From NCBI GenBank assembly GCA_021825295.1, contig JAKAHV010000002.1:70189-134188 (forward strand): a stretch of 64,000 nt of DNA, in the 5' to 3' direction. The notes beneath the pieces were generated by a model, which did not search any database, was not told where the DNA came from, and saw only the letters and a program-made list of their open reading frames with translations. Source of the stretch: Nitrospirota bacterium (lineage in GTDB: Bacteria > Nitrospirota > Thermodesulfovibrionia > Thermodesulfovibrionales > JdFR-88). Shown one piece after another: positions 6,430 to 27,599 of this stretch. Position 1 is the first letter of the stretch; each line of letters begins with the position of its first letter. A program made the position numbers and the translations under genes.

Positions 6430-7886
6430 ATTCCCCTTTTTTCATTTTCAACCGTGCCCATGAATTCCTTGTTCCAGTAAGGAGTGGTGAGCCTGCTCAC
6501 CTTTTCGCCGTATTCGGACATCCCTTTGTGGTAATCCGCGTCCCCGAGGGCCTGCTCCGCGTTCGTGTCGAGTGGTTTCGCGCCGAACTGCCTTATGACG
6601 CCCAGCGCCTTGTCGAAGTGGTCCCTTATGATGCAGGGCACGATGAAGTTTTGCACCTTTTCCGCGGGCTGGGCGTAGCCGTAGTCGTTTTGCCATTTGC
6701 GTATGGACTTGAAATAATCGGAAAAAAGCACGTCGTTCAGGGTCTTGCCTGCCCTGTAGAGGTCGTGGATGTTTGATAGGTAATAGGGGAAAAAGGCGCA
6801 GGGGGCCACGTTCCCGTTCCAGTCTATGTAGAAATAGCCGCCCGGTCTGCCCGCGGAGATGCAGCCCAGGGAATAGGGCCCGCCGTTCCAGAAATCGACA
6901 AGAAACAGGTTGGATTCGTGTATCATGCGCTGCTCGTTCTTGAAGAGGGCCAGCCGCTGCTCCGGGGTGATCATGAGGTCCAGGGTGTAGCTCCTGCCTA
7001 TGGGCATGTAATGGAATATCCAGCCGTAAACGGCCCCTTTCCGGCCGAAATAGAGGTCGGAGAATCCGGCGGACATTATGGCGTCCACGTTGAAGCGCGT
7101 GGCGGTTACGCTTACGCCAAACGGCACGCCGGCCTCCTTCAGGTTGTCCATCGCCCGCATTATCCTGCCGAAGACCCCCTTGCCCCGCCGCCCGTCGGTC
7201 TCTTTCTCGAAACCCTCCACCGAGATGGCCGGCGTGATGTTGCCCAGCTCTGCCATCCTCCTTGCCGTCTCCTTGTCTATCAGGGTGCCGTTGGTGTACA
7301 TCATGAAGTAGACGCCGCTGTTTTCCTCCAGGAGGTCGAAAAGCCCTTTGCCGCTGTCCCTGTCGCGGTAGAGCAGGGGTTCGCCGCCCGATATCACGGT
7401 GAAGTGGGACCCCCAAAGCTCTTTTTTCTCCTTGATGATCCTGTCGAGTATGCCGTAGCCCAGGGTCTCCGCGCTGCCCGCGGAGCTTGAGGCATAGCAG
7501 CCGGTGCAAAAGAGGTTGCATTTCCTGGTGGGGCTTATGGTCAGAAACGCCGGGGGGTATATGCCGTATTTTTCATGGAAATGCCGGGTGCGGTCTTCCT
7601 CTCCCAGCAGGATATTGCCTATGAAATTCCTCGTTATCGCCCCGAAGACCCCGGCGGATATGCGTCCGTCCGACAGCGCCGCGTTGACCGTGTGGAGCAG
7701 GTTTCCGAGCATCTTCGCGCGCGCCTTCTGGATGAGGGGCGGCCTGTCGCCGGTGTTTTTAATCACGAAATTCTCATGGAGCCTTTCTTCCGCTTTCTTA
7801 AGCAGAAGCCTCCGGATGACGTCCTGCCTCAGACAGAAATCAAGGACGCCCGGAGACAGGCGCTTCCAGATGAGGTTGAATTTCAT
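6426..7886 (-). CDS. Radical SAM protein with C-terminal Cys-containing (SPASM/twitch-like) extension, function unknown
   Basis: CNLFCTGC (CxxxCxxC) cluster motif, GGEPLL, and a later GCISAGR...[10 protein letters not shown] block. Its stop overlaps the longest tkt start by 4 nt. Confidence 0.75.
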
Positions 7887-8031
7887 GACGTCTCCTTTCG
7901 CTCATGGGGGACTGGAGGTCCGCCGCGCCAGAGACCGCGTGGAACTTTAGAGCTGCGATTGCCTGCGGTTGCAGTGTTTTTTAAATGCTCCCACTTAAAA
8001 TCCGCCTTGTCAACAATGCGCGCCCTACGGC

Positions 8032-8276
8032 AGTGTCTCAGTTTAGCAATGCAGCCGGGCGATGGCGGATTGAGCGACATGGCTTTTTTTCGTAGCCGGT
8101 GCCGGCGAAGCGAAGCGGCAGCATCTCCGGCTGTCTGAGCCGAAGGGGATCAGTCCCGAGGGACCTGTCCCTGAAGGCGAGTTTCGGAGATGCAGCGGAG
8201 CGAGGCCATGCAGCGGCAGAAAAAAAGCCCAAAAAAGCGAAATCGCCACGGTCCGGCAAATCAAACTAAGGCACTG
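8032..8276. repeat. Repeat family A copy 1 (MITE-like, imperfect TIR about AGTGCCTCAGTTTGGCA)
   Basis: Collinear with 43792-44120 apart from an internal module of about 100 nt. The ends agtgtctcagtttagca / caaactaaggcact are inverted. Confidence 0.6.
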
Positions 8277-8295
8277 ATATGTATTGCCGGCGCGT

Positions 8296-9558
8296 TTAGT
8301 CCTGGCCGTGGCACTTGTTGCAGAGGCTCCTCTGGTACGTCCCGTAGAGGGCGGCGATGTCGCGGCCGTAATAGGGGGCGTTGTTGACAAAGACATGGGT
8401 GACCCTGTCGCCTGTGTTGGCCGGATGGGACTGGGCCAGGAACTCCGCCTGGGTGTCCCATCTGGTCATCTCCGGGAAGGCGGAGGCGTGCGCCCTGTGG
8501 CAGCTCAGGCACATGGCGTTTGCGGGGGGGGACGTGGCCGGGCCGGCGGTGCTTGTGTTGCTCAGGACGGCGCCAAGGCCCCGTTCGAACGGGACGAGGG
8601 AGAGATAGGAGTTGTTTGAGTTGCCGCTGAAATCCCCGGATTTGACATAGGAATTGTAATTGTCCGCAATGCCCCTGGCAAACACGGCGGAAATGCCCGC
8701 CGGGTGGCGGTGCAGGGCGGCCGTGCCGTTGGTGGAGTTCAGGAACTTGTCATGGCAGTTGGCGCACCATTCGGACATGCCGTAGCCGTAGTCCGTGTGG
8801 CGCAGGTTGTCGTAGGTCTCCGTAAACGGCGGGGGGACCGAGACGGCCATGGGGGCGTTATAGGCGAAAGTCATGAGGAACTCGTGGTTGCCCGTATAAA
8901 ACCTGTCGCCAAGCAGCCTGTAATTGCCTGCCTGATACCCGCTTGGCACGGCCAGCCCGTATGAGCCGGACTCCACGATCGCCTCCTGGCCCGCCAGGGA
9001 GCCCCCGTTGGCCCGCCCGTGGGGGTCGTGGCAACTGTTGCAGGCAAGCGCGCTGGCTGGATATCTGATCGTGCTGCCGGGCGCCACCGTGAGCGAGGTG
9101 TCGGCGGTAAGCCCGAAGTCCGCGGCGATTATGTTGTGGCCGTGTTCCTGCCCCAGGACCGTGACGGGCTGCAGGGAAACGCCGCCGGCCTGCGGCGTGT
9201 AGGTGACATCCTCGGTGAGCCAGAAGAAATCTCCACCCGGGGTGAATGCGCTGCCGTCGGTGGTCAGCACGGATATGGGGGATTTTGAGTGGCAGTTAAG
9301 ACAGGTGGAGCTGGCATCGGAGCCCTGAAGCAGGTACGTGTTGGCCGCCTGGCCCGCCACGCCCGCCGGCAGGCCGCCGGCAACGGTGGCATTGCTGGCG
9401 CCGGGCGTTACAAAATTGTTGTGCATCGTATGGCAGCCCTCGCAATAGCCGACGCCTCCATTATGGAACGCCGAGGCGGTCTTGCCGCCGGCCGCCGCCA
9501 GGGCATAGATGACCATCACAAGGGCGGCTGCGGTGAATATGGACCTGGGGAATTTCAT
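8296..9558 (-). CDS. Secreted hexahaem c-type cytochrome, OmcS-family paralog 1 (most divergent)
   Basis: Start taken at MKFPRS, with GGAGG 7 nt upstream. Signal peptide, then FHNGGVGYCEGCHTMHN. Six CxxCH motifs: CEGCH, CLNCH, CNSCH, CANCH, CLSCH, CNKCH. C-terminus YQRSLCNKCHGQD. Confidence 0.8.
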   Translation of the reverse strand: MKFPRSIFTAAALVMVIYALAAAGGKTASAFHNGGVGYCEGCHTMHNNFVTPGASNATVAGGLPAGVAGQAANTYLLQGSDASSTCLNCHSKSPISVLTTDGSAFTPGGDFFWLTEDVTYTPQAGGVSLQPVTVLGQEHGHNIIAADFGLTADTSLTVAPGSTIRYPASALACNSCHDPHGRANGGSLAGQEAIVESGSYGLAVPSGYQAGNYRLLGDRFYTGNHEFLMTFAYNAPMAVSVPPPFTETYDNLRHTDYGYGMSEWCANCHDKFLNSTNGTAALHRHPAGISAVFARGIADNYNSYVKSGDFSGNSNNSYLSLVPFERGLGAVLSNTSTAGPATSPPANAMCLSCHRAHASAFPEMTRWDTQAEFLAQSHPANTGDRVTHVFVNNAPYYGRDIAALYGTYQRSLCNKCHGQD

Positions 9559-9732
9559 GGGCCGGCCTCCTGGCCGCATGCGGGGGTTTTTTGTTGGCCG
9601 TCCGGTTTGGATTACGCCTGACTCTGGAGAACCGCGGAGTGCTGCCCTGAACCTGTCAATTACGAACTCTCCGGCGATGCGCCGGCTGATTAAAACCTAT
9701 CAGGAATCCAGTGGGATGTCAATCTTTAAAAC

Positions 9733-9756
9733 AAAAAACCCCTGAAAATTCAAGGG
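9733..9756 (-). terminator. Rho-independent terminator of the csp gene
   Basis: Minus-strand RNA reads cccuug-aauuuu-cagggg followed by UUUUUU, immediately after the csp stop. Confidence 0.6.
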
Positions 9757-9790
9757 CTTTTTGTCTTTTATATACCGGGTTATATCGTGG

Positions 9791-9994
9791 TTATGCTTTT
9801 TTCTCCACGTTCACGGCCCTTGGCCCCTTTGGCCCCTGTTCGACGTCGAAGCTGACCGCCTGGCCTTCGGCAAGTGTCTTGAACCCGTCTGATTTTATTG
9901 CGGAGAAATGGACGAAGACTTCGTTGCCGTCATCCGCGGTGATAAAACCGAACCCCTTCGCTTCGTTGAACCATTTTACTTTGCCTGTCTGCAT
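9791..9994 (-). CDS. cspA: Cold-shock protein (CspA family)
   Basis: 67 aa; [15 protein letters not shown] and VFVHFSAI carry the RNP1/RNP2 motifs. Confidence 0.92.
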
Positions 9995-10110
9995 CTGGTG
10001 AAAAGACCTCCTTGAATTTTTAAAAAAATAACCCTATAGCCTCTCCGGGTAATGCAAAACGTGAATACTTTGCCATGGGTCCGCCCCTAAAGTCAATCTT
10101 TCTGCCAGTT

Positions 10111-10318
10111 GGGCCTGCGTCAGATTTGTGGGGCTGGTATCTGCCTGTTCCTGGAGAGAAGCGAAGAGCGGACGGATACGACGGGCCCCATCATGACAAT
10201 GGCTTGATATTCGCCCTTGGCGGCAATCCCGCCGCAGGGGGCTTACGCCCGGAACCGCGCGCTGAACGGAAGGGGCAGGCAGATGCCACGCCTTGCCCCA
10301 CAAATCTGACGCAGGCCC
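10111..10318 (+). mobile_element. MITE family B copy 1 (24-nt perfect TIR gggcctgcgtcagatttgtggggc)
   Basis: Left end 10111-10134 is the exact reverse complement of right end 10295-10318. A second copy lies at 19781-20016. There is no coding capacity. Confidence 0.75.
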
Positions 10319-10376
10319 CTGCCAGTTTTCTCACCCCTCAATCTTTCCCTATCAGGCGGTCTAAATCCAATTTTAG

Positions 10377-10409
10377 GTGAAATCACGCAAATGCCATGTG
10401 GGATTTCAC
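10377..10409. promoter_or_regulatory. Inverted repeat GTGAAATC-N16-GATTTCAC, candidate enhancer (UAS) for the sigma-54 promoter downstream
   Basis: 8-bp perfect arms. A related AAATCACGCAgAAT..GGGATTTC site sits upstream of the second sigma-54 promoter (12213-12238). Confidence 0.4.
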
Positions 10410-10565
10410 AGAGCAGGGGCGGATAGCGCCAGCGCCTCCCGAATTGGGAAACCCTGGCCAATCACCAGTGCTTTTTAAAAAGTTTGTTGTTTTTAAATGA
10501 TTTTATTTGAGTTTCTATTCAAACAATTAAATATATAGATAATTGCGAATATTTTAAAAAAGCCT

Positions 10566-10581
10566 TGGTATGCAAATTGCT
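10566..10581 (+). promoter_or_regulatory. Sigma-54 (-24/-12) promoter candidate for OmcS-family paralog 2
   Basis: TGGTATGCAAATTGCT has GG-N10-GC spacing exactly as in the TGGCAC-N5-TTGCW consensus. An AT-rich tract with an IHF-like ATTCAAacaaTTA (10517-10529) lies just upstream. Confidence 0.6.
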
Positions 10582-10740
10582 CGTACGCAAGCCAAGAGTG
10601 ATAAGAAGCAAAGGCCCCGGGGCTCAGTTGAGGCAAGGGCCGGAGCTGGACGGGAGGAGGTGGTAGTGCAGGCGAGAGTATTGGGGAGTGCATAGGACTT
10701 GCCGCCATGCCCGGCAAAAATGGTTTTCCGGGTTGGCTGG

Positions 10741-10815
10741 CGGCAAACTGGATCCGGCCGTTATCGCCGGGAGGCGAAAAAGCTGCGAGGGTTTTGGCCC
10801 CGGGCGCGGCTGCCG
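10741..10815 (+). promoter_or_regulatory. Candidate GEMM-I-like (cyclic-dinucleotide) riboswitch fold in the paralog-2 leader
   Basis: Three-way junction drawn by hand. P1 is cggca/tgccg (10741-45/10811-15). GGCAAAC is followed by hairpin tccggc-cgttatc-gccggga, then junction ggCGAAAAAGC, then P3 ctgcg...cgcgg. It resembles the GGCAAAC...GACGCAAAGC consensus as I recall it, with deviations. Confidence 0.3.
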
Positions 10816-10864
10816 GAGAAGTAACCGGACATTAAACAAAGAAGGAAGAATTAGGGGGAAATTG

Positions 10865-12139
10865 ATGAAAGCAGTCAAAGTCGCATTAATCCTTATGGCC
10901 GCCGCCCTTGTCGTCTTCGGGCTTAGCGGCGCGGCCTTCGCCTTCCATGACGGCGGCGTCGCGTACTGCGAGGGCTGTCATACGATGCACAACTCGATGG
11001 GCGGAGTGTCCAACAGCGTAGGCGGCTGGGGCTCACCCGGCGTCACCCACAACCAGTACCTGCTGAAGGGCACGGACCCCAGCTCCACCTGCCTCAACTG
11101 CCACTCCCACAAGGGTGCGAAATACAACATCTTCAGCACGGACGGCAGCTCGTATACTCCCGGCGGTGACTTCTACTGGATCACCCAGACCTATACCTAT
11201 TCGCCCTGGACCGGCAACACCGCCACCTCCCAGGCGCAGAACCACGGCCATGACATAGTTGCGGCCGACTTCAGCCTCAGCACGGATACCATCCTTACGG
11301 CTGCCCCCGGCAACGGCACGCAGCCGGTGTATTACGCCAGCAACCTGGCCTGCAACTCCTGCCACAACCCGCACGGCCGCGTAAACGGCGGTACGAGGAA
11401 CGGCCAGAAGCCTGTCGGGCAGTCCGGCTCTTACGGCTATACCCCGGTAACCGGGACGATAAACGGCAACTACAGGCTCCTCGCGGACACCTACTATCAG
11501 CCTGGCGATCCGTCCGTCTATGATCCGGCCCCGTCCGGCGTCGCGGGTTATCCCCAGGCCTTTACTTACATCGCAAACGCCCCGGTCGCGGTCGCGCCGG
11601 CTACCTTCAGAGAGGTTGAAGGTCTTGGCACGGCTGGCATATCGCACACCGACTACGGCAACGGCATCGCCGAGTGGTGCGCCAACTGCCACCAGGGCTT
11701 CCTGAACAACGACGCAACCGGCACGACCGGCACCCACAGGCACCCGGCAGGCGACAGCGCCACCCTGGGCCCCACGATCGCCGGCTTCTACAACGAGTAC
11801 GTCTCCACCGGCAACATAACCGGCACGTCGGCTAACGCCTTCCTGCCTCTGGTCCCGTTTGAAAGAGGCGCGGGCGCAACCCTGAGCTCGACCAGCACGG
11901 CGGGCCCGGACGGCACCAACGCGGCAGTTATGTGCCTCACCTGCCACAGGGCTCATGCCTCCGCCTTTGACGAGGGCACCAGGTGGGATACTCAGGCAGA
12001 GTTCATCTCCGCCTCGAGCGCTCTTATAGCCACCGCCAAGCCCTGGGTCGCCAACGCCCCGTACTACGGCTGGGACATCGTGGCCAACATGGGCTCGTAT
12101 CAGAGGCAGCTCTGCAACAAGTGCCACATCCAGGACTAA
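10865..12139 (+). CDS. Secreted hexahaem c-type cytochrome, OmcS-family paralog 2
   Basis: The real start is ATG 10865 (MKAVKVALILMAAAL...); the 10688 extension covers the leader. AFA|FHDGGVAYCEGCHTMHN, six CxxCH, C-terminal YQRQLCNKCHIQD. Confidence 0.85.
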   Translation: MKAVKVALILMAAALVVFGLSGAAFAFHDGGVAYCEGCHTMHNSMGGVSNSVGGWGSPGVTHNQYLLKGTDPSSTCLNCHSHKGAKYNIFSTDGSSYTPGGDFYWITQTYTYSPWTGNTATSQAQNHGHDIVAADFSLSTDTILTAAPGNGTQPVYYASNLACNSCHNPHGRVNGGTRNGQKPVGQSGSYGYTPVTGTINGNYRLLADTYYQPGDPSVYDPAPSGVAGYPQAFTYIANAPVAVAPATFREVEGLGTAGISHTDYGNGIAEWCANCHQGFLNNDATGTTGTHRHPAGDSATLGPTIAGFYNEYVSTGNITGTSANAFLPLVPFERGAGATLSSTSTAGPDGTNAAVMCLTCHRAHASAFDEGTRWDTQAEFISASSALIATAKPWVANAPYYGWDIVANMGSYQRQLCNKCHIQD

Positions 12140-12171
12140 TCCTGGCGGCATAGCCTTATACGTGTAGCAGC

Positions 12172-12198
12172 GCGGGGGCGGACACCGTCCGCCCCCGC
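12172..12198 (+). terminator. 12-bp GC stem-loop after paralog 2 (no U-tract)
   Basis: gcgggggcggac-acc-gtccgcccccgc read directly. No T-run follows, so it may be a terminator or an RNA-stabilising hairpin. Confidence 0.4.
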
Positions 12199-12212
12199 AT
12201 CTCCATCTGCGC

Positions 12213-12238
12213 TAAATCACGCAGAATGGGGGATTTCG
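12213..12238. promoter_or_regulatory. Second copy of the AAATCACGCA..GGGATTTC motif, candidate UAS
   Basis: taaatcacgcagaatgggggatttcg lies about 90 nt upstream of the sigma-54 promoter at 12324 and is similar to 10377-10409. Confidence 0.35.
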
Positions 12239-12323
12239 CCTGTAAAAGAGGCTTGTTCGACTTTTTGCCTTTTTGAGGGTTTTTTTGATGTTTTTCCGCC
12301 GGTTATTGTATTATGAATCCTCC

Positions 12324-12339
12324 TGGTATGTTAATTGCT
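12324..12339 (+). promoter_or_regulatory. Sigma-54 promoter candidate for the NHL gene (and possibly paralog 3)
   Basis: TGGTATGTTAATTGCT matches the 10566 site at 13 of 16 positions, with GG-N10-GC spacing. It lies 27 nt before ATG 12366. Confidence 0.6.
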
Positions 12340-12365
12340 CCCAAGCTATAGCGGAGGGCTTGCAA

Positions 12366-13355
12366 ATGGAGGATGGCAAAGTGGGCGAAAAGGCAGAGTA
12401 CGGAAGGAAAAGGTTTACGGCGGCCCTTCCTGTCTTGTTTCTCCTCCTTGCGGTCTTTCCCGGCCCCTCGCGGGCGTACGGCCTGAGGGTCAGCTACCAG
12501 TACAACCTGGCCGACTCCACCGGCGACATACCGTTTAGCTACGGCGCAAAGCTGGCCATAGACAAGTCCAGGGGCGAAGTCTACGTGACCGACTCCATGC
12601 AGGGCGGGGTCACGATTTTTAATACGACCGGAATGAGGGTCTACCGGTTCGGGGACCAGGCCGACCTGGGCTTCATAGAGGACGTCGCCATCGACAGGAA
12701 GGGCGACATCTTCACCCTTTCCTATAACGACACCAGGCAGCTCTTTTTCATCGGCCTCTGCAACTACAGGGGGGAGCTGCAGTCAAAGATTACGGTCAGC
12801 GGCCTTCCGTCAGGCTTTTCCCACTTCAAGCCCGGCCGCATCTTCTACAACAAGGGCATAATTTACCTCGCGGACGACGAGGACATGCTGGTGGCGCTTG
12901 TAAACCTCCAGGGCAAGTGCATCAGGACTTACCAGTTGAACAAAATCCTTAAATTTACGCCCAAGATGATCAGGGACGACAACAGCGCCTTCGGGTTCGC
13001 GATAGACGATGATGGCAACATGTATCTGACCATCCCGACGCTTTTCCGGGCATACCGGATCACGCCGGACGGGAAGGCCGAGACTTTTGGGAGGGGTGGC
13101 AGCGGTCCCGGCAGGTTCGGGGTCGCCGCCGGGATAGCCGTGGACGGCAACGGCTATATCTACGTCTCGGACAGGCTGCGCTGCTGCGTGCTCGTCTTCA
13201 ACAAGGACCTCAACTTCGTGACCGAATTCGGCTACCGGGGCTTCGGGCCGGGCTCTCTCATAGTCCCCAGCGACGTGGTCGCGGGTCCTGACGGGAGGAT
13301 TTACGTCAGCCAGGCAGGCAACCGGGGTGTGAGTGTTTTCAGCGCGGCTTATTAG
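12366..13355 (+). CDS. NHL-repeat beta-propeller protein, secreted
   Basis: Start at MEDGKV after gcggaggg. Signal-like LPVLFLLLAVFPGPSRA. Repeats of the type GPGRFGVAAGIAVDGNGYIYVSDRLRCCVLVF. Confidence 0.75.
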   Translation: MEDGKVGEKAEYGRKRFTAALPVLFLLLAVFPGPSRAYGLRVSYQYNLADSTGDIPFSYGAKLAIDKSRGEVYVTDSMQGGVTIFNTTGMRVYRFGDQADLGFIEDVAIDRKGDIFTLSYNDTRQLFFIGLCNYRGELQSKITVSGLPSGFSHFKPGRIFYNKGIIYLADDEDMLVALVNLQGKCIRTYQLNKILKFTPKMIRDDNSAFGFAIDDDGNMYLTIPTLFRAYRITPDGKAETFGRGGSGPGRFGVAAGIAVDGNGYIYVSDRLRCCVLVFNKDLNFVTEFGYRGFGPGSLIVPSDVVAGPDGRIYVSQAGNRGVSVFSAAY

Positions 13356-13609
13356 AACAGCCGGAAACAGGGAAGGGGGTGATTGCATAAGGGCAGCAAA
13401 AGGGTCTGCCAACCGGCCAAGGGGAAGATTTGCCGGCCGGCGGCAGGCAGGCTCCGGCCCGTCCTGCATCAGGTAGCTTTCCGTACGGGGTTATCCCCTG
13501 GAGCATCCAACGGGGCCCCCTCAAAAGGGGGAGGATGAACGGGGATATGAACGGAAAGGGCCCGGGACGGGACTCGGGAAAAGGGGGAAACCAATAACAA
13601 GGAGGGATC

Positions 13610-14902
13610 ATGAAAGCAACAAGGCTTGCTCTTGTCCTCATGGCCGCGGCCGCGCTCGTCTTCGCGTTTGCCGGCGCGGCATTCGCGTTCCATGACGGCG
13701 GCGTCGCGTTCTGCGAGGGCTGCCACACGATGCATAACTCGCTGGGCGGCGTGTCAAACAGCGTAAGCGGCTGGGGCAGCCCCGGCGTCACCCACAACCA
13801 GTATCTCCTGAAGGGCACGGACCCCAGCTCCACCTGCCTCAACTGCCACTCCCATTCGGGCGCGAGCTATCAGGTTCTGAGCACGGACGGCAGCGCCTAC
13901 ACTCCTGGCGGCGACTTCTACTGGCTCAGCCAGACCTACACCTATTCGCCCTGGTCCGGCAACACTTCGACCTCCCAGGGGCAGAACCACGGCCATACCG
14001 TGGTTGCGGCCGACTTCGCACTGAGCACGAGCACCATACTCACGGTGGCCCCCGGGGCCGGCACTCAGCCGGTGTATTACGCCAGCAACCTGGCCTGCAA
14101 CTCCTGCCACAACCCGCACGGCCGTGTAAACGGCGGCACCAGGAACGGCCAGGCGCCGGTTATGGGCTCCGGCTCTTACGGGAACACGGCTCCCAGCGGC
14201 ACGATACTTGGCAACTACAGGCTCCTCGCGGACACCTACTACGCACCTGGCGACCCGACCGTCTATGATCCGGCCCCGTCCGGTATCGCGGGCTATCCCC
14301 AGGCATTTACTTACATCGCCAACGCCCCCATAGCGGTAGCTCCGAATGTCGGCCACAGTGCCGCATCGATGCATGAGGTTGAGGGCCTGGGCACGACGGG
14401 TATCGAACACACCGACTACGGCTCGGGCGTCGCCGAGTGGTGCGGCAACTGCCACCAGGGTTTCGTGAACAACGCCGCAGACGGGACGAGCACTACCCAC
14501 AGGCACCCGGCCGGGGATACCGCCACTCTGGGCGCCACAATCGCCGGCTTCTATAATGAATATGTCTCGACCGGCAACATACACGGCACCAGCGCGAATG
14601 CCTACCTGCCTCTGGTCCCGTTTGAAAGGGGCGCGGGCGCAACCCTGAGCGCAAGCAGCACGGCGGGCCCGGACGGGGTTAAGTCGGCCGTCATGTGCCT
14701 TAGCTGCCACAGGGCGCACGCCACCGCCTTTGACGAGATGACCAGGTGGGACACCAGCGCCGATTTCATCTCCGCCTCGAGCGCTCTTATAGCCACCGCC
14801 AAGCCCTGGGCCGCCAACGCCCCGTACTACGGCTGGGACATCGTGGCCAATATGGGCTCTTACCAGAGAAGCCTCTGCAACAAGTGCCACATCCAGGATT
14901 AA
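13610..14902 (+). CDS. Secreted hexahaem c-type cytochrome, OmcS-family paralog 3
   Basis: AFA|FHDGGVAFCEGCHTMHN, six CxxCH, YQRSLCNKCHIQD. Long runs are nucleotide-identical to paralog 2. Confidence 0.85.
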   Translation: MKATRLALVLMAAAALVFAFAGAAFAFHDGGVAFCEGCHTMHNSLGGVSNSVSGWGSPGVTHNQYLLKGTDPSSTCLNCHSHSGASYQVLSTDGSAYTPGGDFYWLSQTYTYSPWSGNTSTSQGQNHGHTVVAADFALSTSTILTVAPGAGTQPVYYASNLACNSCHNPHGRVNGGTRNGQAPVMGSGSYGNTAPSGTILGNYRLLADTYYAPGDPTVYDPAPSGIAGYPQAFTYIANAPIAVAPNVGHSAASMHEVEGLGTTGIEHTDYGSGVAEWCGNCHQGFVNNAADGTSTTHRHPAGDTATLGATIAGFYNEYVSTGNIHGTSANAYLPLVPFERGAGATLSASSTAGPDGVKSAVMCLSCHRAHATAFDEMTRWDTSADFISASSALIATAKPWAANAPYYGWDIVANMGSYQRSLCNKCHIQD

Positions 14903-14927
14903 TCACCGTGGCTTAGAGGTATCTATC

Positions 14928-14957
14928 GGGGGCGGGGTTTGTTCCGCCCCCTTTTTT
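14928..14957 (+). terminator. Rho-independent terminator 1 after paralog 3
   Basis: 8-bp stem gggggcgg/ccgccccc followed by TTTTTT. Confidence 0.7.
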
Positions 14958-14963
14958 CCATCA

Positions 14964-14994
14964 GGGGCCGGCTCACCGCCGGCCCCTCTTTTTT
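14964..14994 (+). terminator. Rho-independent terminator 2 after paralog 3 (tandem)
   Basis: 9-bp stem ggggccggc/gccggcccc followed by tcTTTTTT. Confidence 0.7.
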
Positions 14995-15214
14995 GGTGAT
15001 AGGAAATTTTAGAACCTCAAAAATAAAATTTTATTGTTTGCATTTCCCTTTGGAATTTGTTGAAAGGCCGTCATACCGGTCCCGCCGGGGCGGGATATCC
15101 AGTGACTTTGCCGTGGAGCCTTAACGTCACTGGATTCCGGATTACTAAATCTGGAATGACGGCTTAAAATTCAATAGATACCCTGCAACTTGCTGCAGGG
15201 TGATTCATTTCCTC

Positions 15215-15243
15215 TTGGTATCCCGCCCGTTTTTCACTATAAT
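15215..15243 (+). promoter_or_regulatory. Sigma-70-like promoter candidate far upstream of paralog 4
   Basis: TTGGTA-N17-TATAAT read directly. It lies about 445 nt upstream of ATG 15688, with REP-like hairpins in between. A similar TATAATGGA occurs at 17709 upstream of paralog 5. Confidence 0.3.
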
Positions 15244-15687
15244 GGAGTGGATTGCGCATCCCCAAAGTTTGACTTTTTCCCTTTTCGCATGCCCCGGGGG
15301 CATGCCCACAGTGCCTGCTGGTTTATGAATTTCTGTATGTTTTTCAATAGGCTTGAATATGTGATTTTCAGGGAGTTCTAACAGGATGCGGAAAAACTAT
15401 TTTCGAGCCTTTTATCCGTAATTCCCGCGAAGGCGGGAATCCAGGTTTTTCAATGACTTATATTTAAAGTGGATTCCAAGCCGGGGAATGACGAATTTGA
15501 GACTTTTTCAACAGCCTGCTAATCAATCGTCTTCATCGGGGAAAGGAGGTGGCTTAAAAAAGATAAAAAATCGGGGCCCTTTAAAAGTTTCACAGGGAGA
15601 AGCGGGGCCTGCCGGGGGCTTGCTGCCGGCGGGCATGGAGAAACAGCGGGGAAAAGGGCATATATCGATAAGGGAGGGTATTTATTG

Positions 15688-16977
15688 ATGAAAGCTCTGA
15701 AGACCGGACTCGTCCTGCTGGCCGCGGTCTTTCTGGTTGCCGCATTGGGCGGGACTGCCATCGGCTTCCATGACGGCGGCGTGGCCTACTGCGAGGGCTG
15801 CCACACGATGCACAACTCGCTTGGCGGCGTGTCAAACAGCATTCATGGCGCGGGCACCCCCGGCACCGCTTTAAACCAGTATCTTCTCAAGGGTACGGAC
15901 CCAAGCTCCACCTGCCTGAACTGCCACTCGCAGCCGACCGGCAACAACATCCAGGTGCTGAGCCTGGACGGCACCGCCTATACGCCGGGCGGCGACTTCT
16001 ACTGGCTCAAGGAGACCTACACCTATTCTCCATGGGCCGGCGCCACCCTCACCTCAAACGGGCAGAACCACGGCCATACCGTGGTGGCAATCGACTTCTC
16101 CCTCACAACGAGCACCATACTTACCGTGGCCCCGGGGCGGGGCACCCAGCCGGAGTATTATTCCAGCAACCTGGCCTGCAACTCCTGCCATAACCCGCAC
16201 GGCCGGGTCGACGGAGGCACCAGGAGCGGCAAGGTGGGGCCGGTCGCGCAGTCCGGCTCCTACGGCTACGCCCCCATAGCCGGGACCGTAAACGGCAACT
16301 ACAGGCTCCTCGCGGACATCGGCTACGCCCCCGGCGACCCCGCCGTCTTCGGTCCGCAACCCTCCGGCGTGGCAGGCTATCCCCAGGCGTTTACTTACAT
16401 CGCGAACGCCCCGGTGGCGGTCTCGCCTATCAACTTCAAGGAGGTTGAGGGCCTTGGCGCGGCCGGCATAGAGCACGTCGATTACGGGACGGGCGTTGCC
16501 GAGTGGTGCGCCAACTGCCACCAGGGATTTTTGAACGACGCCTCTCCCCACGGCACATCCACCTACCACCGCCATCCGGCCGGCGACACCGCCAGGCTCG
16601 GCGGCCTCGCAGACCTCTATAACTCATACGTCAAATCTGGCGTCTATACCGGCGCGCAGGCGACCTCCTATCTGCCCCTTGTGCCATTTGAAAGGGGGAC
16701 AGCCACAGGGCTGGCCGCCAACAGCCCGGCGGGGCCGCTTGCGGGCGGGGCGGGCAGCGAAGCCGTCATGTGCCTTAGCTGCCACAGGGCGCACGCGAGC
16801 GCATTCGACGAGATGACAAGGTGGGACACGACCGCGGAGTTCATGTCCGCATCGAGCGCGCTGATCGCGACCGCCAGGCCCTGGGCCACCAACGCGCCTT
16901 ATTACGGCTGGGACATAGTGGGCCAGATGGGCTCCTATCAGAGGAACCTCTGCAACAAGTGCCATGTGCAGGATTAA
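15688..16977 (+). CDS. Secreted hexahaem c-type cytochrome, OmcS-family paralog 4
   Basis: ATG 15688, preceded in frame by TTG 15685. AIG|FHDGGVAYCEGCHTMHN, six CxxCH, YQRNLCNKCHVQD. Confidence 0.85.
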   Translation: MKALKTGLVLLAAVFLVAALGGTAIGFHDGGVAYCEGCHTMHNSLGGVSNSIHGAGTPGTALNQYLLKGTDPSSTCLNCHSQPTGNNIQVLSLDGTAYTPGGDFYWLKETYTYSPWAGATLTSNGQNHGHTVVAIDFSLTTSTILTVAPGRGTQPEYYSSNLACNSCHNPHGRVDGGTRSGKVGPVAQSGSYGYAPIAGTVNGNYRLLADIGYAPGDPAVFGPQPSGVAGYPQAFTYIANAPVAVSPINFKEVEGLGAAGIEHVDYGTGVAEWCANCHQGFLNDASPHGTSTYHRHPAGDTARLGGLADLYNSYVKSGVYTGAQATSYLPLVPFERGTATGLAANSPAGPLAGGAGSEAVMCLSCHRAHASAFDEMTRWDTTAEFMSASSALIATARPWATNAPYYGWDIVGQMGSYQRNLCNKCHVQD

Positions 16978-17970: not shown

Positions 17971-19260
17971 ATGAAAGCATTGAAGATCTGGCTCATACTC
18001 ATGGCCGCGGCCTTGGCCGTTTTCGCCTTTAACGGCGCGGCCCTTGCGTTCCATGACGGCGGCGTGGCCTACTGCGAGGGCTGCCACACGATGCATAACT
18101 CGGTAGGCGGGGCTGTCGTCAATACACCTGGCGGGGTAAAGGGCACTGTCGGCAACGGCCTCAATGAGTATCTACTGCAGGGCTCGGACCCGAGCTCCAC
18201 CTGCCTCAACTGCCACGCGAAAAATACGATGGGCGCGAACATCCAGGTGCTCAGCTCTGACGGCACCGCCTATACGCCGGGCGGCGACTTTTACTGGGTC
18301 AACAAGACCTACACCTATTCCCCGTGGGCCGGCGCAAACATGACCTCGGAGGGGTATAACCACGGCCACAGCGTCATAGCCTCCGACTTCGGCCTTTCCG
18401 AGGACTCTCACTTCGCGGGCAATGTGGGACCTGGCGGGACCTATCCCGCCTCCAACCTGGCCTGCAACTCCTGCCACAACCCGCACGGCCGCGTCAACGG
18501 GGGCACAAGAAACAGCGAGGGGCCGGTGAAGGCTTCCGGCTCCTACGGCCCGGGTTTCTGCACTCCTGACGCCAGCGGGATATGCGGCAACTACAGGCTC
18601 CTGGCGGACGGCCTCTACAATGCCGGCGACCCCGCTGTCTTCGGAAGCTCCTCAGCGCAGGGTTTCCCGGTGCAAGGCTATCACTACACCGCCAACGCGC
18701 CCGTTGCCGTGGCGCCGCAGGATTTCCGGGAAAAGGAGGACGGCTACGGCACAGGTTCCGGCATCGAGCACGTGGATTACGGCACCGGCATCGCCGAGTG
18801 GTGCGCCAACTGCCACGGCGCTTTCCTGAACAACAGCGGAGGGACGGGCACGGGCTACCACCGCCACCCGGCGGGCGACAGCGCCAAGCTTGGCGGCCTG
18901 GCCAGCCTCTACAACTCATATGTAAAGTCCGGCGACTATGCAGGCGACAGCAGCAAATCCTATCTGCCGCTGGTGCCTTTTGAAAGGGGCGTGGCGACGG
19001 GGCTCGTCGCAAACAGCCCCGCGGGGCCTGACGGCGCAAACGCGGCCGTCATGTGCCTGAGCTGCCACAGGGCGCACGCCTCGGCATTCGACGAGATGAC
19101 CAGGTGGGACACCAGCGCGGAGTTCATGTCCGCCTCTAGCGCGCTTATCGCCACCTCGAAGCCATGGGCCGCCAACGCCCCGTATTACGGCTGGGACATA
19201 GTGGGACAGATGGGCTCCTACCAGAGGAACCTCTGCAACAAGTGCCACGTGCAGGATTAA
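17971..19260 (+). CDS. Secreted hexahaem c-type cytochrome, OmcS-family paralog 5
   Basis: ALA|FHDGGVAYCEGCHTMHN, six CxxCH, YQRNLCNKCHVQD. An extra Cys pair (GFCTPDASGIC) is unique to this copy. Confidence 0.85.
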   Translation: MKALKIWLILMAAALAVFAFNGAALAFHDGGVAYCEGCHTMHNSVGGAVVNTPGGVKGTVGNGLNEYLLQGSDPSSTCLNCHAKNTMGANIQVLSSDGTAYTPGGDFYWVNKTYTYSPWAGANMTSEGYNHGHSVIASDFGLSEDSHFAGNVGPGGTYPASNLACNSCHNPHGRVNGGTRNSEGPVKASGSYGPGFCTPDASGICGNYRLLADGLYNAGDPAVFGSSSAQGFPVQGYHYTANAPVAVAPQDFREKEDGYGTGSGIEHVDYGTGIAEWCANCHGAFLNNSGGTGTGYHRHPAGDSAKLGGLASLYNSYVKSGDYAGDSSKSYLPLVPFERGVATGLVANSPAGPDGANAAVMCLSCHRAHASAFDEMTRWDTSAEFMSASSALIATSKPWAANAPYYGWDIVGQMGSYQRNLCNKCHVQD

Positions 19261-19296
19261 CGTTCGCGGCATAACGCATCTTTAATATGGCACAGG

Positions 19297-19323: not shown

Positions 19324-19328
19324 ATAAG

Positions 19329-20137: not shown

Positions 20138-21544
20138 TTGGGTAAGCTTGCAAAAATCCCGGTCCTCGCGCTCCTGCTGATCTTCGGATGCCAGATAAAA
20201 CCACAACAGCTCCAGCCTGCCCTTGTGCATGAAGGGGAGGTTTATGTCTACATGGAGCCGCTGCCGCTGAAGGCCCAGAGGTTGAGCTTCACCTTCAACG
20301 GCGTCTATTGCATCCGGGCGGACGGCGCCTTGATACCCCTCAGGCTTCACATGGCCGGGTTCGACTCCGTGCTGGCGGGCAGGCAGAGGCTTGTGGCGCG
20401 CGGCATACTTCCGGCCGGTCAATACACCGGGCTTGCCCTTTCCGTGAAGGACGCCCACCTGAGATCGGAGGAAGGCATGCAGTCTTCCCTCCTCGTTCCG
20501 GACAAGCCGGTGAGGCGCGAGCTGCCCTTCACGGTCAGGGAAAGGGGCGGCGTGGTCATCTCCATGACCCTCCGGTACGGCCAGGCGGTCCGGGCGGGGT
20601 TCAATTTCACGCCCGCCTTCGATCTGAAGATACCCGATAAACCCGTCGATGCGCTTTTGGGCTATGTGGTGAATACCGGTTCGAACGACATCACTGTCTT
20701 TAACAAGCTGGCGATGGAGGTGACGGGGGTCATCGTCACCGGGGCGGGCCCGATGGGGATGGCCCTGGACCCGAACCTGAAGAGGGGTTATGTGGCGCTC
20801 TCCCGGGAGGACGCGATCGACGTGATAGACATGACGGAGGGCGCGGTGGTGGGCCGCATACGGCTTAACACGGGGGACAGCCCCAGCCAGGTGGCGCTTA
20901 CGCCGGACGGCGGCGCGCTGCTGTCCGTCAACACCGGCTCCAACACCGTAAGCGTTATAGACCCCGTCTCCTTCGTGGAGCGAAGCCGGATAAAGGTGGG
21001 GATACAGCCCGTCTACATACAGCTTGACCCTTCCGGCAAGAGGGCCTACGTCTTCAACTATTTCTCGAACACCATCTCCATAATAGACCTTACCTCGGGC
21101 TCCGTGGTGGCCACCGTCCCCACGGACCCCGCCCCCATAAGGGGCGCTTTTGACCGCAGCGGCGGCAAGCTTTACATAATTAACGAGAGCACTCCCTATC
21201 TCACGGTCCTGGACACCTCCAGCCTTGCCGTCATAAAGCGGCAGTTCGCCGGGCAGGGCATGAGGGCCATAAAGGTGGACACGAGATCGGACCTCATCTA
21301 CATAGGGAAAATGAACACCCCCCTTCTTGAGGTTTACGACCCGTTTACCTTCATACCGGTCGATTACATAAAAGCCGGTGAGGACCCGGCCTACATGACT
21401 ATAGACAACGACGAGAACAACCTCTGCGTGGTTGACCCCGTCCTGCGGTCGCTCATTTTCATAAGCCTGTCGAGCAGGAAGACCGTCTCCATGATCGACG
21501 TCGGCAGCGGCCCGTACTGGGTGAGCCTCATGGGGGAGAGGTAA
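20138..21544 (+). CDS. Lipoprotein with YVTN-type beta-propeller repeats
   Basis: TTG start after AAGGAGG. Lipobox LLLIFGC. Repeats of about 40 residues such as GYVVNTGSNDITVFN, SVNTGSNTVSVIDP and YVFNYFSNTISIIDL. Confidence 0.7.
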   Translation: MGKLAKIPVLALLLIFGCQIKPQQLQPALVHEGEVYVYMEPLPLKAQRLSFTFNGVYCIRADGALIPLRLHMAGFDSVLAGRQRLVARGILPAGQYTGLALSVKDAHLRSEEGMQSSLLVPDKPVRRELPFTVRERGGVVISMTLRYGQAVRAGFNFTPAFDLKIPDKPVDALLGYVVNTGSNDITVFNKLAMEVTGVIVTGAGPMGMALDPNLKRGYVALSREDAIDVIDMTEGAVVGRIRLNTGDSPSQVALTPDGGALLSVNTGSNTVSVIDPVSFVERSRIKVGIQPVYIQLDPSGKRAYVFNYFSNTISIIDLTSGSVVATVPTDPAPIRGAFDRSGGKLYIINESTPYLTVLDTSSLAVIKRQFAGQGMRAIKVDTRSDLIYIGKMNTPLLEVYDPFTFIPVDYIKAGEDPAYMTIDNDENNLCVVDPVLRSLIFISLSSRKTVSMIDVGSGPYWVSLMGER

Positions 21545-21555: not shown

Positions 21556-23874
21556 ATGACTGACGGCCGGATAAAGTTTTTCAATATTCCCCTTTTTTTT
21601 TTAGCCCTCCTGGCGGCGTTTCTGGCGGCGCCCGCGCCTGCCATGGCGGGTGTAAACGCGGGGCTTGAATGGGATTACGGGGTCTTCAACACCAAAACGA
21701 CCGACAAGACGACCAACGAGACCAGCCAGTCCAGGCTCGTTTCCTTCGAGCAGATATACAGGCTGGACCTCTCCAGGAGGATATATCCGCATCTGGAGGT
21801 CCACGGGGGCGGCATATTCGACAGGCTGTCGAGCAAGTCCACCGTTGACGGCACTCCCTCCATCACCTCCACCACCAGGACGCTCAGGCCCTATGCCGGG
21901 GTATCCTTCGGCACCGCGCCCTTCAGCGTGGGCCTGGATTACAGCAGCATCGAAAGGACGACCGGTTTTTCCGGGTCCGCCTCCAGCACGCAGATAAACG
22001 ACAGCTATAACGCCATCTTCGGGTGGAGGCCCGACGGCCTTCCTCCCCTCACCGTCCAGTATTCAAGGGCCCACCAGTATGACGAGCAGCACCTCCTGAA
22101 CGACATAACGAGCGATTCGCTGAGCTGGAGCACTTCATATTCCCCGCTTAAAAACCTGCTGCTTGCATACGAGGGCTCCTGGGACAAGTCCAAAAACAAC
22201 CTCAACGACACGACCTTCACGGACTTGAACAACAGCGGCCGCGTCTCCTACGCCAGGGGGTTCTTCAACAACCGCGTCATGATGAACACGGATTACAACA
22301 CCCACTACGACCAGACGGAGACCGAGGTCACCACCACTTCCAGCGGGCTGGTCTATTTCCAGGTCTTCCCGTTCAACGGGTTCTCCCTTGAGAGTGTAAC
22401 GGCGCCCGCGACGACGGCGTTCCAGCAGAACCCGGACGACATGACGTATCAGGACAAGGCGCTCACGGACGGCGACACCAAGACCAGCGCGGGCATAGAC
22501 GTCGGCTGGGGGAACTATCAGCAGAAGAACAACTCCCTCGCGAACTGGAACATGGGACTGAAATTCCAGGACACGCCCGCCGTCAACGCCCTTTTCGTCT
22601 ATGTCGACAGGGACGTCAGCCAGCTTTTATCCGAGGTCCCGAACCCCTTCAACTGGCAGGTCTGCACTAGCGCGGACAACCAGAACTGGTCGTGCCAGCC
22701 TGTGGTGGCGCTCTACCAGCCCTTCGGCCAGCCGCCAAACCAGAACCCCAGGTTCGAGATAGACCTGCCCGGGGACCTGAATTCGACGTGGGTGAAGGTC
22801 GTGGTAAACCCCCTGAACCCCTCGACCCCGGTGGTCCTTTCGCAGTCGCAGTTTCAGCACATATACGTTACCGAGGTGCAGGCCTTCGAGCGCAAACAGG
22901 CCCGCGAGGTGCAGGGCCAGACGGAGACCGCATCTTCGTCCCAGTACGACCTGAGCCTGCGGGCGTCCCTGCTCAGCCGTCCGCAGCTTTTCTACGACTT
23001 CAACCTGATCTATTCCATCAACTCCGGCTCCGGACAGCCCAGCACCACAAACTACACGATATCAAACGGTTTTACGGTGCTGCACAGGTTCAGCAGCATA
23101 TTGACCGGCACTGCCAGGGTCTCCCGCGACGAGGTCGAAAACGAGGCCGGCACCGGGACATCCTATCTCTACAGCGCGTCTCTGACCGCCGTGCCTGTGC
23201 CCGCCCTGAACGACAACCTGATCTATAGCGGCTCCACTTCCTCCGCCGACGGGATAACCACGACGACAAACGCGGTGTTTCTGAACAATACCGCGGAACT
23301 CTACCAGGGCATAAGCGCGTATGCCAGGGCGGGCGTCAATTTCGGCAGTTCGAGCAACGGCATCGAGAGCACGAGCTACACTTACAATTTCGGCTCGACC
23401 CTCACCCCGTACCGCACCCTTTCCCTGAACATGGACTATTCCGAATCGCACACCTCCGAAAACGGCGTGCCCGTCCTGCCCGGCGTCCAGCCCTCCACGG
23501 TCACTCCGCAGGCGAGCTCGGAATTCCACACGAATACCGCCGACGTGTCGGTCTCGTGGTCGCCGTTCAGCACGCTTTATGCCGTTTTGGCCATCGACTA
23601 CGTCTCCACGGAGCAGACCTCCCGCACGGCCTACAATTACAACGTAAGCTGGTCTCCGTTTCCGTATGGCGCGGTCCAGTTCTCCTTTGCGTACAACGAG
23701 TCCATAGGGACGGGCCCCGACGCGCCCACCTCCAGGACGATAAGCCCCAGCATGAGGTGGAGGATAGCGCAGCGCACGTTCCTGGACGTCTCCTATGCGA
23801 TACTGAAAAGCGAGGACGACCTTGCCGTTTCGAATTCGGACTCTGTCTATGCGACGTTCAAGAAATTCTTCTGA
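21556..23874 (+). CDS. Large outer-membrane beta-barrel protein with an internal discoidin/galactose-binding-like segment
   Basis: Signal peptide ...APAPAMA. Alternating Ser/Thr/Tyr-rich beta-strand pattern and a C-terminal ...YATFKKFF ending in Phe. The central NWNMGLKF...WQVCTSADNQNWS...WVKVVV...IYVTEVQAF resembles an F5/8 type C domain. Confidence 0.55.
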   Translation: MTDGRIKFFNIPLFFLALLAAFLAAPAPAMAGVNAGLEWDYGVFNTKTTDKTTNETSQSRLVSFEQIYRLDLSRRIYPHLEVHGGGIFDRLSSKSTVDGTPSITSTTRTLRPYAGVSFGTAPFSVGLDYSSIERTTGFSGSASSTQINDSYNAIFGWRPDGLPPLTVQYSRAHQYDEQHLLNDITSDSLSWSTSYSPLKNLLLAYEGSWDKSKNNLNDTTFTDLNNSGRVSYARGFFNNRVMMNTDYNTHYDQTETEVTTTSSGLVYFQVFPFNGFSLESVTAPATTAFQQNPDDMTYQDKALTDGDTKTSAGIDVGWGNYQQKNNSLANWNMGLKFQDTPAVNALFVYVDRDVSQLLSEVPNPFNWQVCTSADNQNWSCQPVVALYQPFGQPPNQNPRFEIDLPGDLNSTWVKVVVNPLNPSTPVVLSQSQFQHIYVTEVQAFERKQAREVQGQTETASSSQYDLSLRASLLSRPQLFYDFNLIYSINSGSGQPSTTNYTISNGFTVLHRFSSILTGTARVSRDEVENEAGTGTSYLYSASLTAVPVPALNDNLIYSGSTSSADGITTTTNAVFLNNTAELYQGISAYARAGVNFGSSSNGIESTSYTYNFGSTLTPYRTLSLNMDYSESHTSENGVPVLPGVQPSTVTPQASSEFHTNTADVSVSWSPFSTLYAVLAIDYVSTEQTSRTAYNYNVSWSPFPYGAVQFSFAYNESIGTGPDAPTSRTISPSMRWRIAQRTFLDVSYAILKSEDDLAVSNSDSVYATFKKFF

Positions 23875-25748: not shown

Positions 25749-27599
25749 ATGAACTTTAGCTTGGAAACGCATAAGCCTTCAGCAGCCGGTCGTATCTGGA
25801 AGTCAACCTGCCTGGATTTTTCGCCGCGTAAAGCCCTTGTGGCGGTGGTGCGGGCCGCAGCGGCAGCCATGATATCCGCATCTGTTGTCCTCGTCCTTGG
25901 GATGCCGGCCTTCGCATCCGGAGCAACAGCAAAAACCCACAAGCTGCCGGTTATCGGCGGCAAGGATGTGGTTGCCACGGTTGAGGGGGAGCCCATAACG
26001 GTGGATGAGTTCAATCAGGCCATCGGGATGATACACGAGAAGATGACCGGGGAGAAGAAGGCCACCCCCATAGATTACTCCAGGATACTGGACCGCCTGA
26101 TAGCGGTGAAGCTCGTCGGGCTGGAGGCCAGGAACATCGGGCTTGACGACCTGCGGGAAGTCAAGGACTTCATGAAGGCGTACACCACGAAGACGCTCAT
26201 AGTGATGGAGGTGGCGGACCACCTGAAAGACGCGAAGCCGGACCCCGCCCTCGTGCGGAAGATTTACAGGGCCTATGTGAAGCAGTACAAGCTTGAATCC
26301 GTTGACTTCAAGGTCAAGTCCTTCGCGGACGAGGCGAAAAAGAAGATGGCCGCGAAGAAGAATTTTGAGAAGGTCGTCTCCGACGCGATCAAAAAAGGCA
26401 TCGCCCAGGGCGATATAAAGGGCAGCCTCACGAAACCCGAAAAGATGCTGATGCCGGTGGCCGAAGAGGTCAGCCGGATGAAGCCTGGCCAGATAAGCCC
26501 GGTGATACCGGCGGGCGTAAACAATTATGTTATCGTGAAGCTCGTCGGGTTCGCCTATCCCAAAGACCCAGCCGCCATGAAGAGGGCGCAGAGGGACGCC
26601 CTGCAGTACGAGCAGGTGAAGCTCTACGGCGCCTATGTGAGCCAACTGGCGAAGAAACACGTGAAGGTGCATAAAGACGTCATGAAGGCGCTGGACAAGA
26701 TCGATTATGCCTCCAAGAAGTTCGATATGGCCAAATTCATGAAGGACAAGCGCGTCCTGGCGGATGTGGACGGGGCGCGGCCCATCACGGTTGGAGACCT
26801 GGGGGCCGAGATGGACAAGTACTTCTATCACGGCACGGACAAGGTCGCGAACAAGAAGATTCTGCAGATAAAGGACAAGCTCTTCAACGATATGCTGGCC
26901 AAGAGGCTCCTGGTCGAGCAGGCGCGCAAGCATGGCGTGGACAAGGCTGAGAAATACAAGCAGATGGTCGCGGACCGCGAAGCGGGGGTGCTTTTCGAGG
27001 AATTCATGAAGAGGGTTGTCGCGCCGGACGTGAAGGTCGGCCTCGCCGAGCTGAAGACATACTACAAGGGGCACATTGGGGACTTTTCCTCTCCCCGGAT
27101 GGTGAAGGTCAGGAGCATGGCCTTTGCGAAGCGCCAGGACGCCATGACGGCCGCCGCCATGCTCGAGAAGGGCGACAGTTACGGATGGGTAAAGACCAAC
27201 GCCGCCGGCCAGTTGCCGAAGGGGGCGAAGGGGGCGAAGGGGGTGCTTGATTTCGGCGGGGGTCTCATAACATTTTCCAGCATGCCGGAGGGCGCACAGA
27301 AGGCCCTGGCTGACGCGAAGGAAGGCGATAACAGGGTCTTCGCCTATTCCAACCTGTTCTATGTGCTGTTCCTTGAAAAAAATGTTCCTCCCAAGCCGCA
27401 GTCCTTCGACACGGTGAAGGAAGACATTTACAAGAAGGTGTACACGCAGAAATTCAACCAGGCTGCCGATGTCTGGATATCCAAGCTGAAGAAGGCCTAC
27501 AAGGTCCGGATATTTGACGCGTCCCTCAAACTGGACGAGCCGGCGGTGTCCGGGGGCAAGACGGAAACAACCCAAAAGACGGAAACAATCAAAAAGTAA
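25749..27599 (+). CDS. SurA-like periplasmic chaperone / PpiC-type peptidyl-prolyl isomerase
   Basis: Lys-rich helical chaperone regions flank a parvulin-like segment (PRMVKVRSMAFAKRQDAM...GDSYGWV). The true start is probably internal (GTG 25839 or ATG 25869), giving the signal peptide ...VVLVLGMPAFA. Confidence 0.6.
   Translation: MNFSLETHKPSAAGRIWKSTCLDFSPRKALVAVVRAAAAAMISASVVLVLGMPAFASGATAKTHKLPVIGGKDVVATVEGEPITVDEFNQAIGMIHEKMTGEKKATPIDYSRILDRLIAVKLVGLEARNIGLDDLREVKDFMKAYTTKTLIVMEVADHLKDAKPDPALVRKIYRAYVKQYKLESVDFKVKSFADEAKKKMAAKKNFEKVVSDAIKKGIAQGDIKGSLTKPEKMLMPVAEEVSRMKPGQISPVIPAGVNNYVIVKLVGFAYPKDPAAMKRAQRDALQYEQVKLYGAYVSQLAKKHVKVHKDVMKALDKIDYASKKFDMAKFMKDKRVLADVDGARPITVGDLGAEMDKYFYHGTDKVANKKILQIKDKLFNDMLAKRLLVEQARKHGVDKAEKYKQMVADREAGVLFEEFMKRVVAPDVKVGLAELKTYYKGHIGDFSSPRMVKVRSMAFAKRQDAMTAAAMLEKGDSYGWVKTNAAGQLPKGAKGAKGVLDFGGGLITFSSMPEGAQKALADAKEGDNRVFAYSNLFYVLFLEKNVPPKPQSFDTVKEDIYKKVYTQKFNQAADVWISKLKKAYKVRIFDASLKLDEPAVSGGKTETTQKTETIKK

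Follow-up and report, generated by a model that had tools for sequence, protein, structure and literature searches.

Five neighbouring OmcS-family hexahaem cytochromes of an uncultured Nitrospirota bacterium keep the N-terminal histidine of OmcS, a hallmark of the family that does not predict which copies form wires

The locus described here raises the question of how much a single conserved histidine can tell about the ability of a multihaem cytochrome to polymerise into wires. In the 64-kb window, i.e. the whole stretch of DNA that was analysed, there are five open reading frames of 424-430 aa with six CxxCH motifs each, one on the minus strand and four on the plus strand, and in all of them a histidine is found three residues past the first motif. 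In the OmcS filament, His16 of one subunit, which we take to be the bridging residue, ligates haem 5 of the next subunit; this role of His16 was reportedly described by Wang and co-workers in 2019. The five genes and their N-terminal blocks, numbered from the predicted mature residues F1 to H16, are the following:

8296..9579, minus strand: paralog 1, the divergent copy; 427 aa from the ATG at 9579 (alternative ATG at 9558), 55% identical to paralog 2
9421..9468, minus strand: F1 to H16 block of paralog 1, FHNGGVGYCEGCHTMH, preceded by ...KTASA
10865..12139, plus strand: paralog 2, OmcS-family hexahaem cytochrome that holds the block studied here; 424-aa precursor with six CxxCH motifs, matched to OmcS by phmmer
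10943..10990, plus strand: F1 to H16 block of paralog 2, codons 27-42 (F27-H42), FHDGGVAYCEGCHTMH; predicted mature N-terminus
13610..14902, plus strand: paralog 3, 430 aa
13688..13735, plus strand: F1 to H16 block of paralog 3, FHDGGVAFCEGCHTMH, preceded by ...GAAFA
15688..16977, plus strand: paralog 4, 429 aa from the ATG at 15688
15766..15813, plus strand: F1 to H16 block of paralog 4, FHDGGVAYCEGCHTMH, preceded by ...GTAIG (A-x-G)
17971..19260, plus strand: paralog 5, 429 aa from the ATG at 17971
18049..18096, plus strand: F1 to H16 block of paralog 5, FHDGGVAYCEGCHTMH, preceded by ...GAALA

The window paralogs are 55-83% identical to the copy at 10865. The whole genome encodes eight OmcS-family paralogs, each with exactly six CxxCH motifs; the three that lie outside the window, on other contigs, also have His16. 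These additional copies are found on contig C39 (L006 1435-2742 and 2825 onward; L007 1492-2904) and on contig C10 (L008 1498-2805, minus strand), and they are nearer to OmcS proper. Two of them show altered ends: in the C10 copy, the FH start is separated by about 17 additional residues from AHA, where the signal peptide is likely cleaved, and the second C39 copy (470 aa) ends in a glycine-rich C-terminal extension instead of the common three-residue tail. Such changes at either end could influence head-to-tail contacts.

The position of the histidine was established by comparison with OmcS of Geobacter sulfurreducens (GSU2504; PDB 6EF8, 6NEF). A phmmer search against all PDB sequences aligned residues 27-424 of paralog 2 with residues 1-407 of the OmcS chain (6ef8/6nef, E=1e-66), and this was the sole match. 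Given that F27 falls on F1 of OmcS, H42 corresponds to OmcS His16; the equivalence to OmcS His16, proposed in the first-pass annotation, is thus supported, and a check for an alignment that would place it elsewhere left the equivalence standing. In the OmcS chain (407 residues, rebuilt from the alignment) the CxxCH histidines are residues 13, 51, 144, 243, 332 and 404. Exactly 12 histidines are invariant in OmcS and the eight paralogs of the genome: the six motif histidines plus H2, H16, H110, H147, H257 and H335. It has been reported that the mature OmcS protein comprises residues 26-432 and that all of its 12 axial ligands are histidines (Filman et al., PMC6584659). The subunit itself contributes 11 of these ligands, and the remaining one, on haem 505 (haem 5), belongs to a neighbouring molecule (PMC6584659). 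The 12 invariant histidines therefore equal in number the 12 axial ligands reported for OmcS, which argues that H16 is an axial ligand. A residue number for the bridging histidine of OmcS was not named in the publications returned by our literature search, which stated that a neighbouring molecule provides one of the ligands of haem 505 (PMC6584659) or described the bridge in general terms. In paralog 2, the block carries three predicted axial ligands, H2, H13 (in the haem 1 motif) and H16.

The similarity to OmcS extends over the full length of the proteins and includes the order of the six CxxCH motifs, the 12 histidines with His16 among them, the predicted F1 start after the signal peptide, the three-residue C-terminal tail and the fold. 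A model of the mature 10865 protein, obtained with AF2 from a 32-sequence alignment as a single haem-free chain, reached a pTM of 0.73 and a moderate mean pLDDT of 66; when compared with the PDB it matched 6ef8_A only (TM 0.72/0.70, E=1e-21), and its N-terminal arm (residues 1-38) had the lowest confidence of the model except for one loop. In contrast, the window paralogs are only about 36-45% identical to OmcS and form a separate, well-supported subfamily, their loops are shorter (e.g. the OmcS insertion at about 55-80 is reduced), and their host is a Nitrospirota bacterium; in addition, polymerisation is known for OmcS and putative for the window proteins. The five genes are ordinary additions to a known family, encoded by a Nitrospirota bacterium that is uncultured.

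Three further histidines are present in all five window copies; in the 10865 paralog they occupy mature positions 101 (within HGH), 235 (within SHTDYG) and 265 (within HRHPAG). The corresponding OmcS residues are K108, R228 and L255, and two of these histidines form H-x-H pairs with axial ligands; at the position of OmcS K108, 58 of 95 family representatives have a histidine.

After the predicted signal peptide all five window paralogs, the minus-strand copy included, begin with FH(D/N)GGV(A/G)(Y/F)CEGCHTMH, as had been noticed at first sight, and the block differs among them only at positions 3 (D/N), 7 (A/G) and 8 (Y/F). F1 lies eight residues before the first haem cysteine and is preceded by AFA, AFA, AIG, ALA or ASA. 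The AxA cleavage site that had been attributed to every paralog is consequently present in four of them (AFA, AFA, ALA, ASA), and in the 15688 copy it is replaced by A-I-G, an A-x-G site that is still compatible with the -3/-1 rule. Cleavage at F1 is a prediction based on the alignment with the experimentally mature N-terminus of OmcS. At the other end, the chain terminates three residues past the last CxxCH with the pattern x-(K/Q)-D in the five paralogs (IQD, IQD, VQD, VQD, GQD; AKD in OmcS) and in 85 of 96 representatives. The predicted F1 start and the three-residue tail imply that both chain ends are trimmed to a fixed register, which would fit a head-to-tail contact.

Among the five paralogs 13 of the 16 block positions are invariant, vs 43% of the positions in the complete mature protein (P = 2e-3, binomial), and as the most conserved 16-residue stretch the N-terminal block is tied with the blocks of the haem 2, haem 3 and haem 5 motifs; the last of these, CHRAHASAF(D/P)E(G/M)TRWDT, likewise has 13 of 16 positions invariant. 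The codons for His16 in the five copies are CAC, CAC, CAT, CAC and CAT, synonymous changes occur inside the block, and the pairwise values are 0.47-1.2 for dS and 0.26-0.39 for dN/dS. From this divergence at synonymous sites, the low dN/dS and the differing His16 codons it follows that the block has been conserved by purifying selection and not by recent copying. An origin of the identical block by recent gene conversion was considered, but the synonymous differences within it and the dS values rule this out. The five paralogs are old duplicates under selection, neither fresh copies nor pseudogenes.

The gene neighbourhood was compared with that of omcS in a Geobacteraceae genome (one contig of 3,814,128 bp, G021) in which one encoded protein shows 100% identity to the OmcS chain and which, by this identity, is G. 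sulfurreducens; in it, omcS is located at 2758654-2759874. The genes of the window that accompany the paralogs are:

12273..13355, plus strand: NHL-repeat beta-propeller gene (Pfam NHL) between paralogs 2 and 3; best match in the reference at 2760207-2761115 (E=9e-69), directly upstream of omcS
20138..21544, plus strand: 468-aa beta-propeller of the osc-like companion cluster; best match in the reference at 2751276-2752658 (E=7e-115), directly downstream of the omcS paralogs
21556..23874, plus strand: 772-aa protein of the osc-like companion cluster; only match in the reference at 2749113-2751227 (E=2e-95), likewise just downstream of the omcS paralogs
25749..27599, after the companion genes: PPIase/SurA-like prolyl isomerase gene (Pfam)

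Thus, the NHL-repeat, beta-propeller and 730/772-aa neighbours are common to both loci; in contrast, three copies are present in the Geobacter locus and five here, beside one companion cluster. Genes for large multihaem cytochromes also follow the beta-propeller and 772-aa genes, and Pfam searches identified in the cluster a YNCE propeller and a Rotamase_2/SurA_N protein. For the published osc (omcS companion) operon, the functions summarised in PMC13194489 are folding for OscH, secretion for OscEFG and morphology for OscD, and the predicted companion cluster of the window agrees with this operon; the companion types expected beside omcS, i.e. a beta-propeller, a large channel-like protein and a prolyl isomerase, are all represented next to the array. 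The beta-propeller and 772-aa genes are single-copy in the genome, and no second companion cluster for the three paralogs outside the window was found in the 91%-complete assembly. On the other side of the array, a radical SAM/SPASM enzyme gene (Pfam; 6426-7886, minus strand) adjoins the minus-strand paralog, upstream of a transketolase gene.

Regarding the origin of the array, the closest relatives of the paralogs, with 88% and 67% identity, come from "MAG: Nitrospirae bacterium DBS2-1.bin159", and many more matches were obtained in Nitrospirota MAGs. In a tree of 134 rows, a clade of seven (SH-aLRT support 100) is made up of the four plus-strand paralogs, two copies of the sister MAG and a database representative with the same sequence as paralog 4; for the minus-strand paralog 1, a separate ortholog is present in the sister MAG (L009 5204-6367, minus strand). 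All five belong to a 41-row clade (support 99) that excludes the OmcS, OmcT, OmcJ and OscC copies of Geobacter as well as the other three paralogs of the genome, at a tree distance of about 1.2-1.5 from OmcS proper. Other members of this subfamily are two copies from Malonomonas rubra and copies from MAGs that carry the labels Desulfobacterales, Gemmatimonadota and Nitrospirae, and none of its members is among the solved structures. Given that the five are placed in a separate clade, none of them is a simple counterpart of OmcT or OscC; a counterpart of either was sought and ruled out, since no Geobacter copy falls within the clade. Other Nitrospirota also carry OmcS-like genes in tandem, with five copies in MAG MFD00008.bin.1.129 (L015 8400-18044) and three in Nitrospira sp. 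Ru_enrich_NS (L016 8680-12856), all of which keep FH..C..CHTMH.

Two strong terminator-like GC-rich hairpins with T-runs are present directly 3' of paralog 3 (14928-14987, plus strand), and another terminator-like GC-rich hairpin with a T-run directly 3' of paralog 5 (19297-19314, plus strand), which indicates several transcription units within the array. Paralogs 3, 4 and 5 and the companion cluster are spaced by gaps of 0.8-1 kb; together with the hairpins, these gaps suggest that the paralogs are at least partly expressed separately. Paralogs 2 and 3 appear to share one transcription unit that ends at the terminators at 14928-14987. A GEMM-I-like fold had been proposed at 10741-10815, upstream of paralog 2, and was not recovered: when 7800-20500 was searched with Rfam at E <= 0.1, the leaders of the paralogs showed no c-di-GMP/cGAMP (GEMM) or other riboswitch. 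The sole match was to the cspA thermoregulator (9731-10110, minus strand; 76.3 bits vs a gathering score of 78, E=4e-18), probably because this model spans the cold-shock coding region; a CspA-type cold-shock gene (67 aa; 9791-9994, minus strand) is located between the divergent paralogs 1 and 2.

The value of His16 as a marker depends on its distribution in the family, for which 659 matches were obtained in a library of 1.8 billion proteins. Among 99 full-length representatives with six or seven haems, a histidine at CxxCH+3 is present in 93, and 83 have FH as far ahead of the first cysteine as in the window paralogs, usually directly after an AxA site. When the ligand histidines were compared in 95 representatives (clustered at 50% and pre-selected for a histidine at position 2, so that His2 is invariant by construction), H16 was present in 92 and the ten other ligand histidines in all 95; H16 is, in consequence, the sole ligand histidine that is ever lost, as would fit a ligand that acts between subunits and is not needed for the monomer to fold. 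All four G. sulfurreducens copies keep FH(S/E)GG(V/A)..CEGCHTMH; relative to OmcS, the adjacent copy, at the OmcT position, is 67% identical, that at the GSU2501/OscC position 54%, and that at the OmcJ position 59%. The first 21 mature residues of OmcS and of the OmcT-position copy are identical. Among these copies only OmcS is known to polymerise, and OmcT, OscC and OmcJ are not known to (PMC12977616); two of the latter are encoded within the omcS operon (PMC13194489). The window copies resemble them in being multiple hexahaem paralogs with the same N-terminal signature; unlike them, they are lineage-specific duplications common to the sister MAG, and none groups with them in the tree.

The proposition of the first-pass annotation that the strict conservation of the histidine in five copies argues for polymerisation of all of them is not supported: the residue marks membership of the family, as indicated by the 93 of 99 representatives and all four G. 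sulfurreducens copies that have it. Being nearly universal, also in copies that are not known as wire formers, His16 does not discriminate these from the others; it is needed for assembly of the OmcS type and does not predict which paralogs form wires. For genome surveys the main value of this locus, as it stands, is therefore one of caution: the histidine of CxxCH-x-x-H is a family hallmark, unusable for calling nanowire formers.

The reading that we prefer, with a probability of roughly 0.6, is that the block is an N-terminal arm conserved among OmcS-family hexahaem cytochromes, that all five paralogs keep the requirements for OmcS-type polymerisation, and that at least one of them is probably a wire subunit of the host Nitrospirota bacterium. 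According to this proposal, a Sec signal peptide would be cleaved and the mature protein would start at Phe1; the arm would then supply three of the twelve axial ligands, His2, His13 (of the first CxxCH) and His16, and the last of these would cross the interface and serve as the remaining axial ligand of haem 5 in the next subunit, as in the solved OmcS filament. All five paralogs keep the set of 12 ligand histidines, the six CxxCH motifs in the OmcS order, the trimmed C-terminus and, as predicted, the OmcS fold; given these features and the position of the array beside the only companion cluster, as judged from the beta-propeller and 772-aa genes, each paralog would have what head-to-tail polymerisation of the OmcS type requires. 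We infer from these comparisons that any of the five may ligate a neighbouring subunit and polymerise. The principle, a histidine of one subunit that coordinates a haem of the next, has been reported for OmcE and archaeal cytochrome nanowires, and the subunit interface of OmcS measures roughly 1,900 A2 (bioRxiv 10.1101/2022.07.17.500359); unlike the window proteins, those cytochromes are tetrahaem, and they are unrelated in sequence and fold and not homologous to them.

It is also conceivable that few or none of the five are wire subunits and that the others are monomeric or transiently associating carriers in the periplasm or on the outer surface, as OmcT, OscC and OmcJ may be, in which the histidine is kept as a ligand in a non-filament state, e.g. 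in dimers, in docking to a wire or in an assembly intermediate. We consider this unlikely, although it carries appreciable weight, given that the histidine occurs in all four G. sulfurreducens copies of which OmcS alone is known to polymerise, and that GSU2501 (OscC) has been tabulated as periplasmic (PMC13194489). A conservation of 93 of 99 is moreover higher than expected if a minority of members formed wires, and the three extra histidines of the window subfamily could be alternative ligands. Nevertheless, His16 lies three residues past the haem 1 ligand, and the order of the haems along the axis follows that of the motifs (PMC6584659), so that haem 5 of the same chain should be out of its reach. 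The fact that it is the only dispensable ligand histidine of the family also fits a role between subunits rather than within a carrier, and the array adjoins the only companion cluster found in the genome; these points speak against the carrier reading.

If more than one paralog polymerises, the subunits might be combined. The donor arm and the acceptor block of haem 5 are nearly identical in all five and, each with 13 of 16 invariant positions, among the most conserved stretches; this similarity and the unit that paralogs 2 and 3 appear to share would be favourable to co-polymerisation into mixed wires. However, OmcS wires have been described as homopolymers (PMC12307469) even though the OmcT-position copy carries the same 21-residue arm, so that an identical arm is no evidence for co-polymerisation, and the gaps of 0.8-1 kb and the separate terminators suggest separate regulation; mixed wires of this kind seem to us very improbable. 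A broader version, which we regard as improbable too but somewhat less so, is that a single assembly cluster builds several OmcS-type wires from five interchangeable subunits, either as condition-specific homopolymers with different surfaces or redox windows or as mixed filaments, with the shared arm and haem 5 pocket as a universal connector. If several paralogs do polymerise, this bacterium would show that several wire subunits can depend on a single assembly cluster, and this would bear on the tuning of long-range electron transfer.

The informative cases in this family are the rare members that have lost His16, which are candidates for non-polymerising or end-piece subunits. Members without His16 that keep the other ligand histidines were observed in a Desulfobacterales MAG (L012 10079-11122), in Malonomonas rubra (L014 10064-11185) and in the representatives P0097, P0107 and P0111; the contexts that replace the usual one are CHVLN, CHVGGH, CHGSL, CHALI and CHAFG. 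The Malonomonas copy is placed in tandem with a normal copy and has, in addition, a C-terminal extension.
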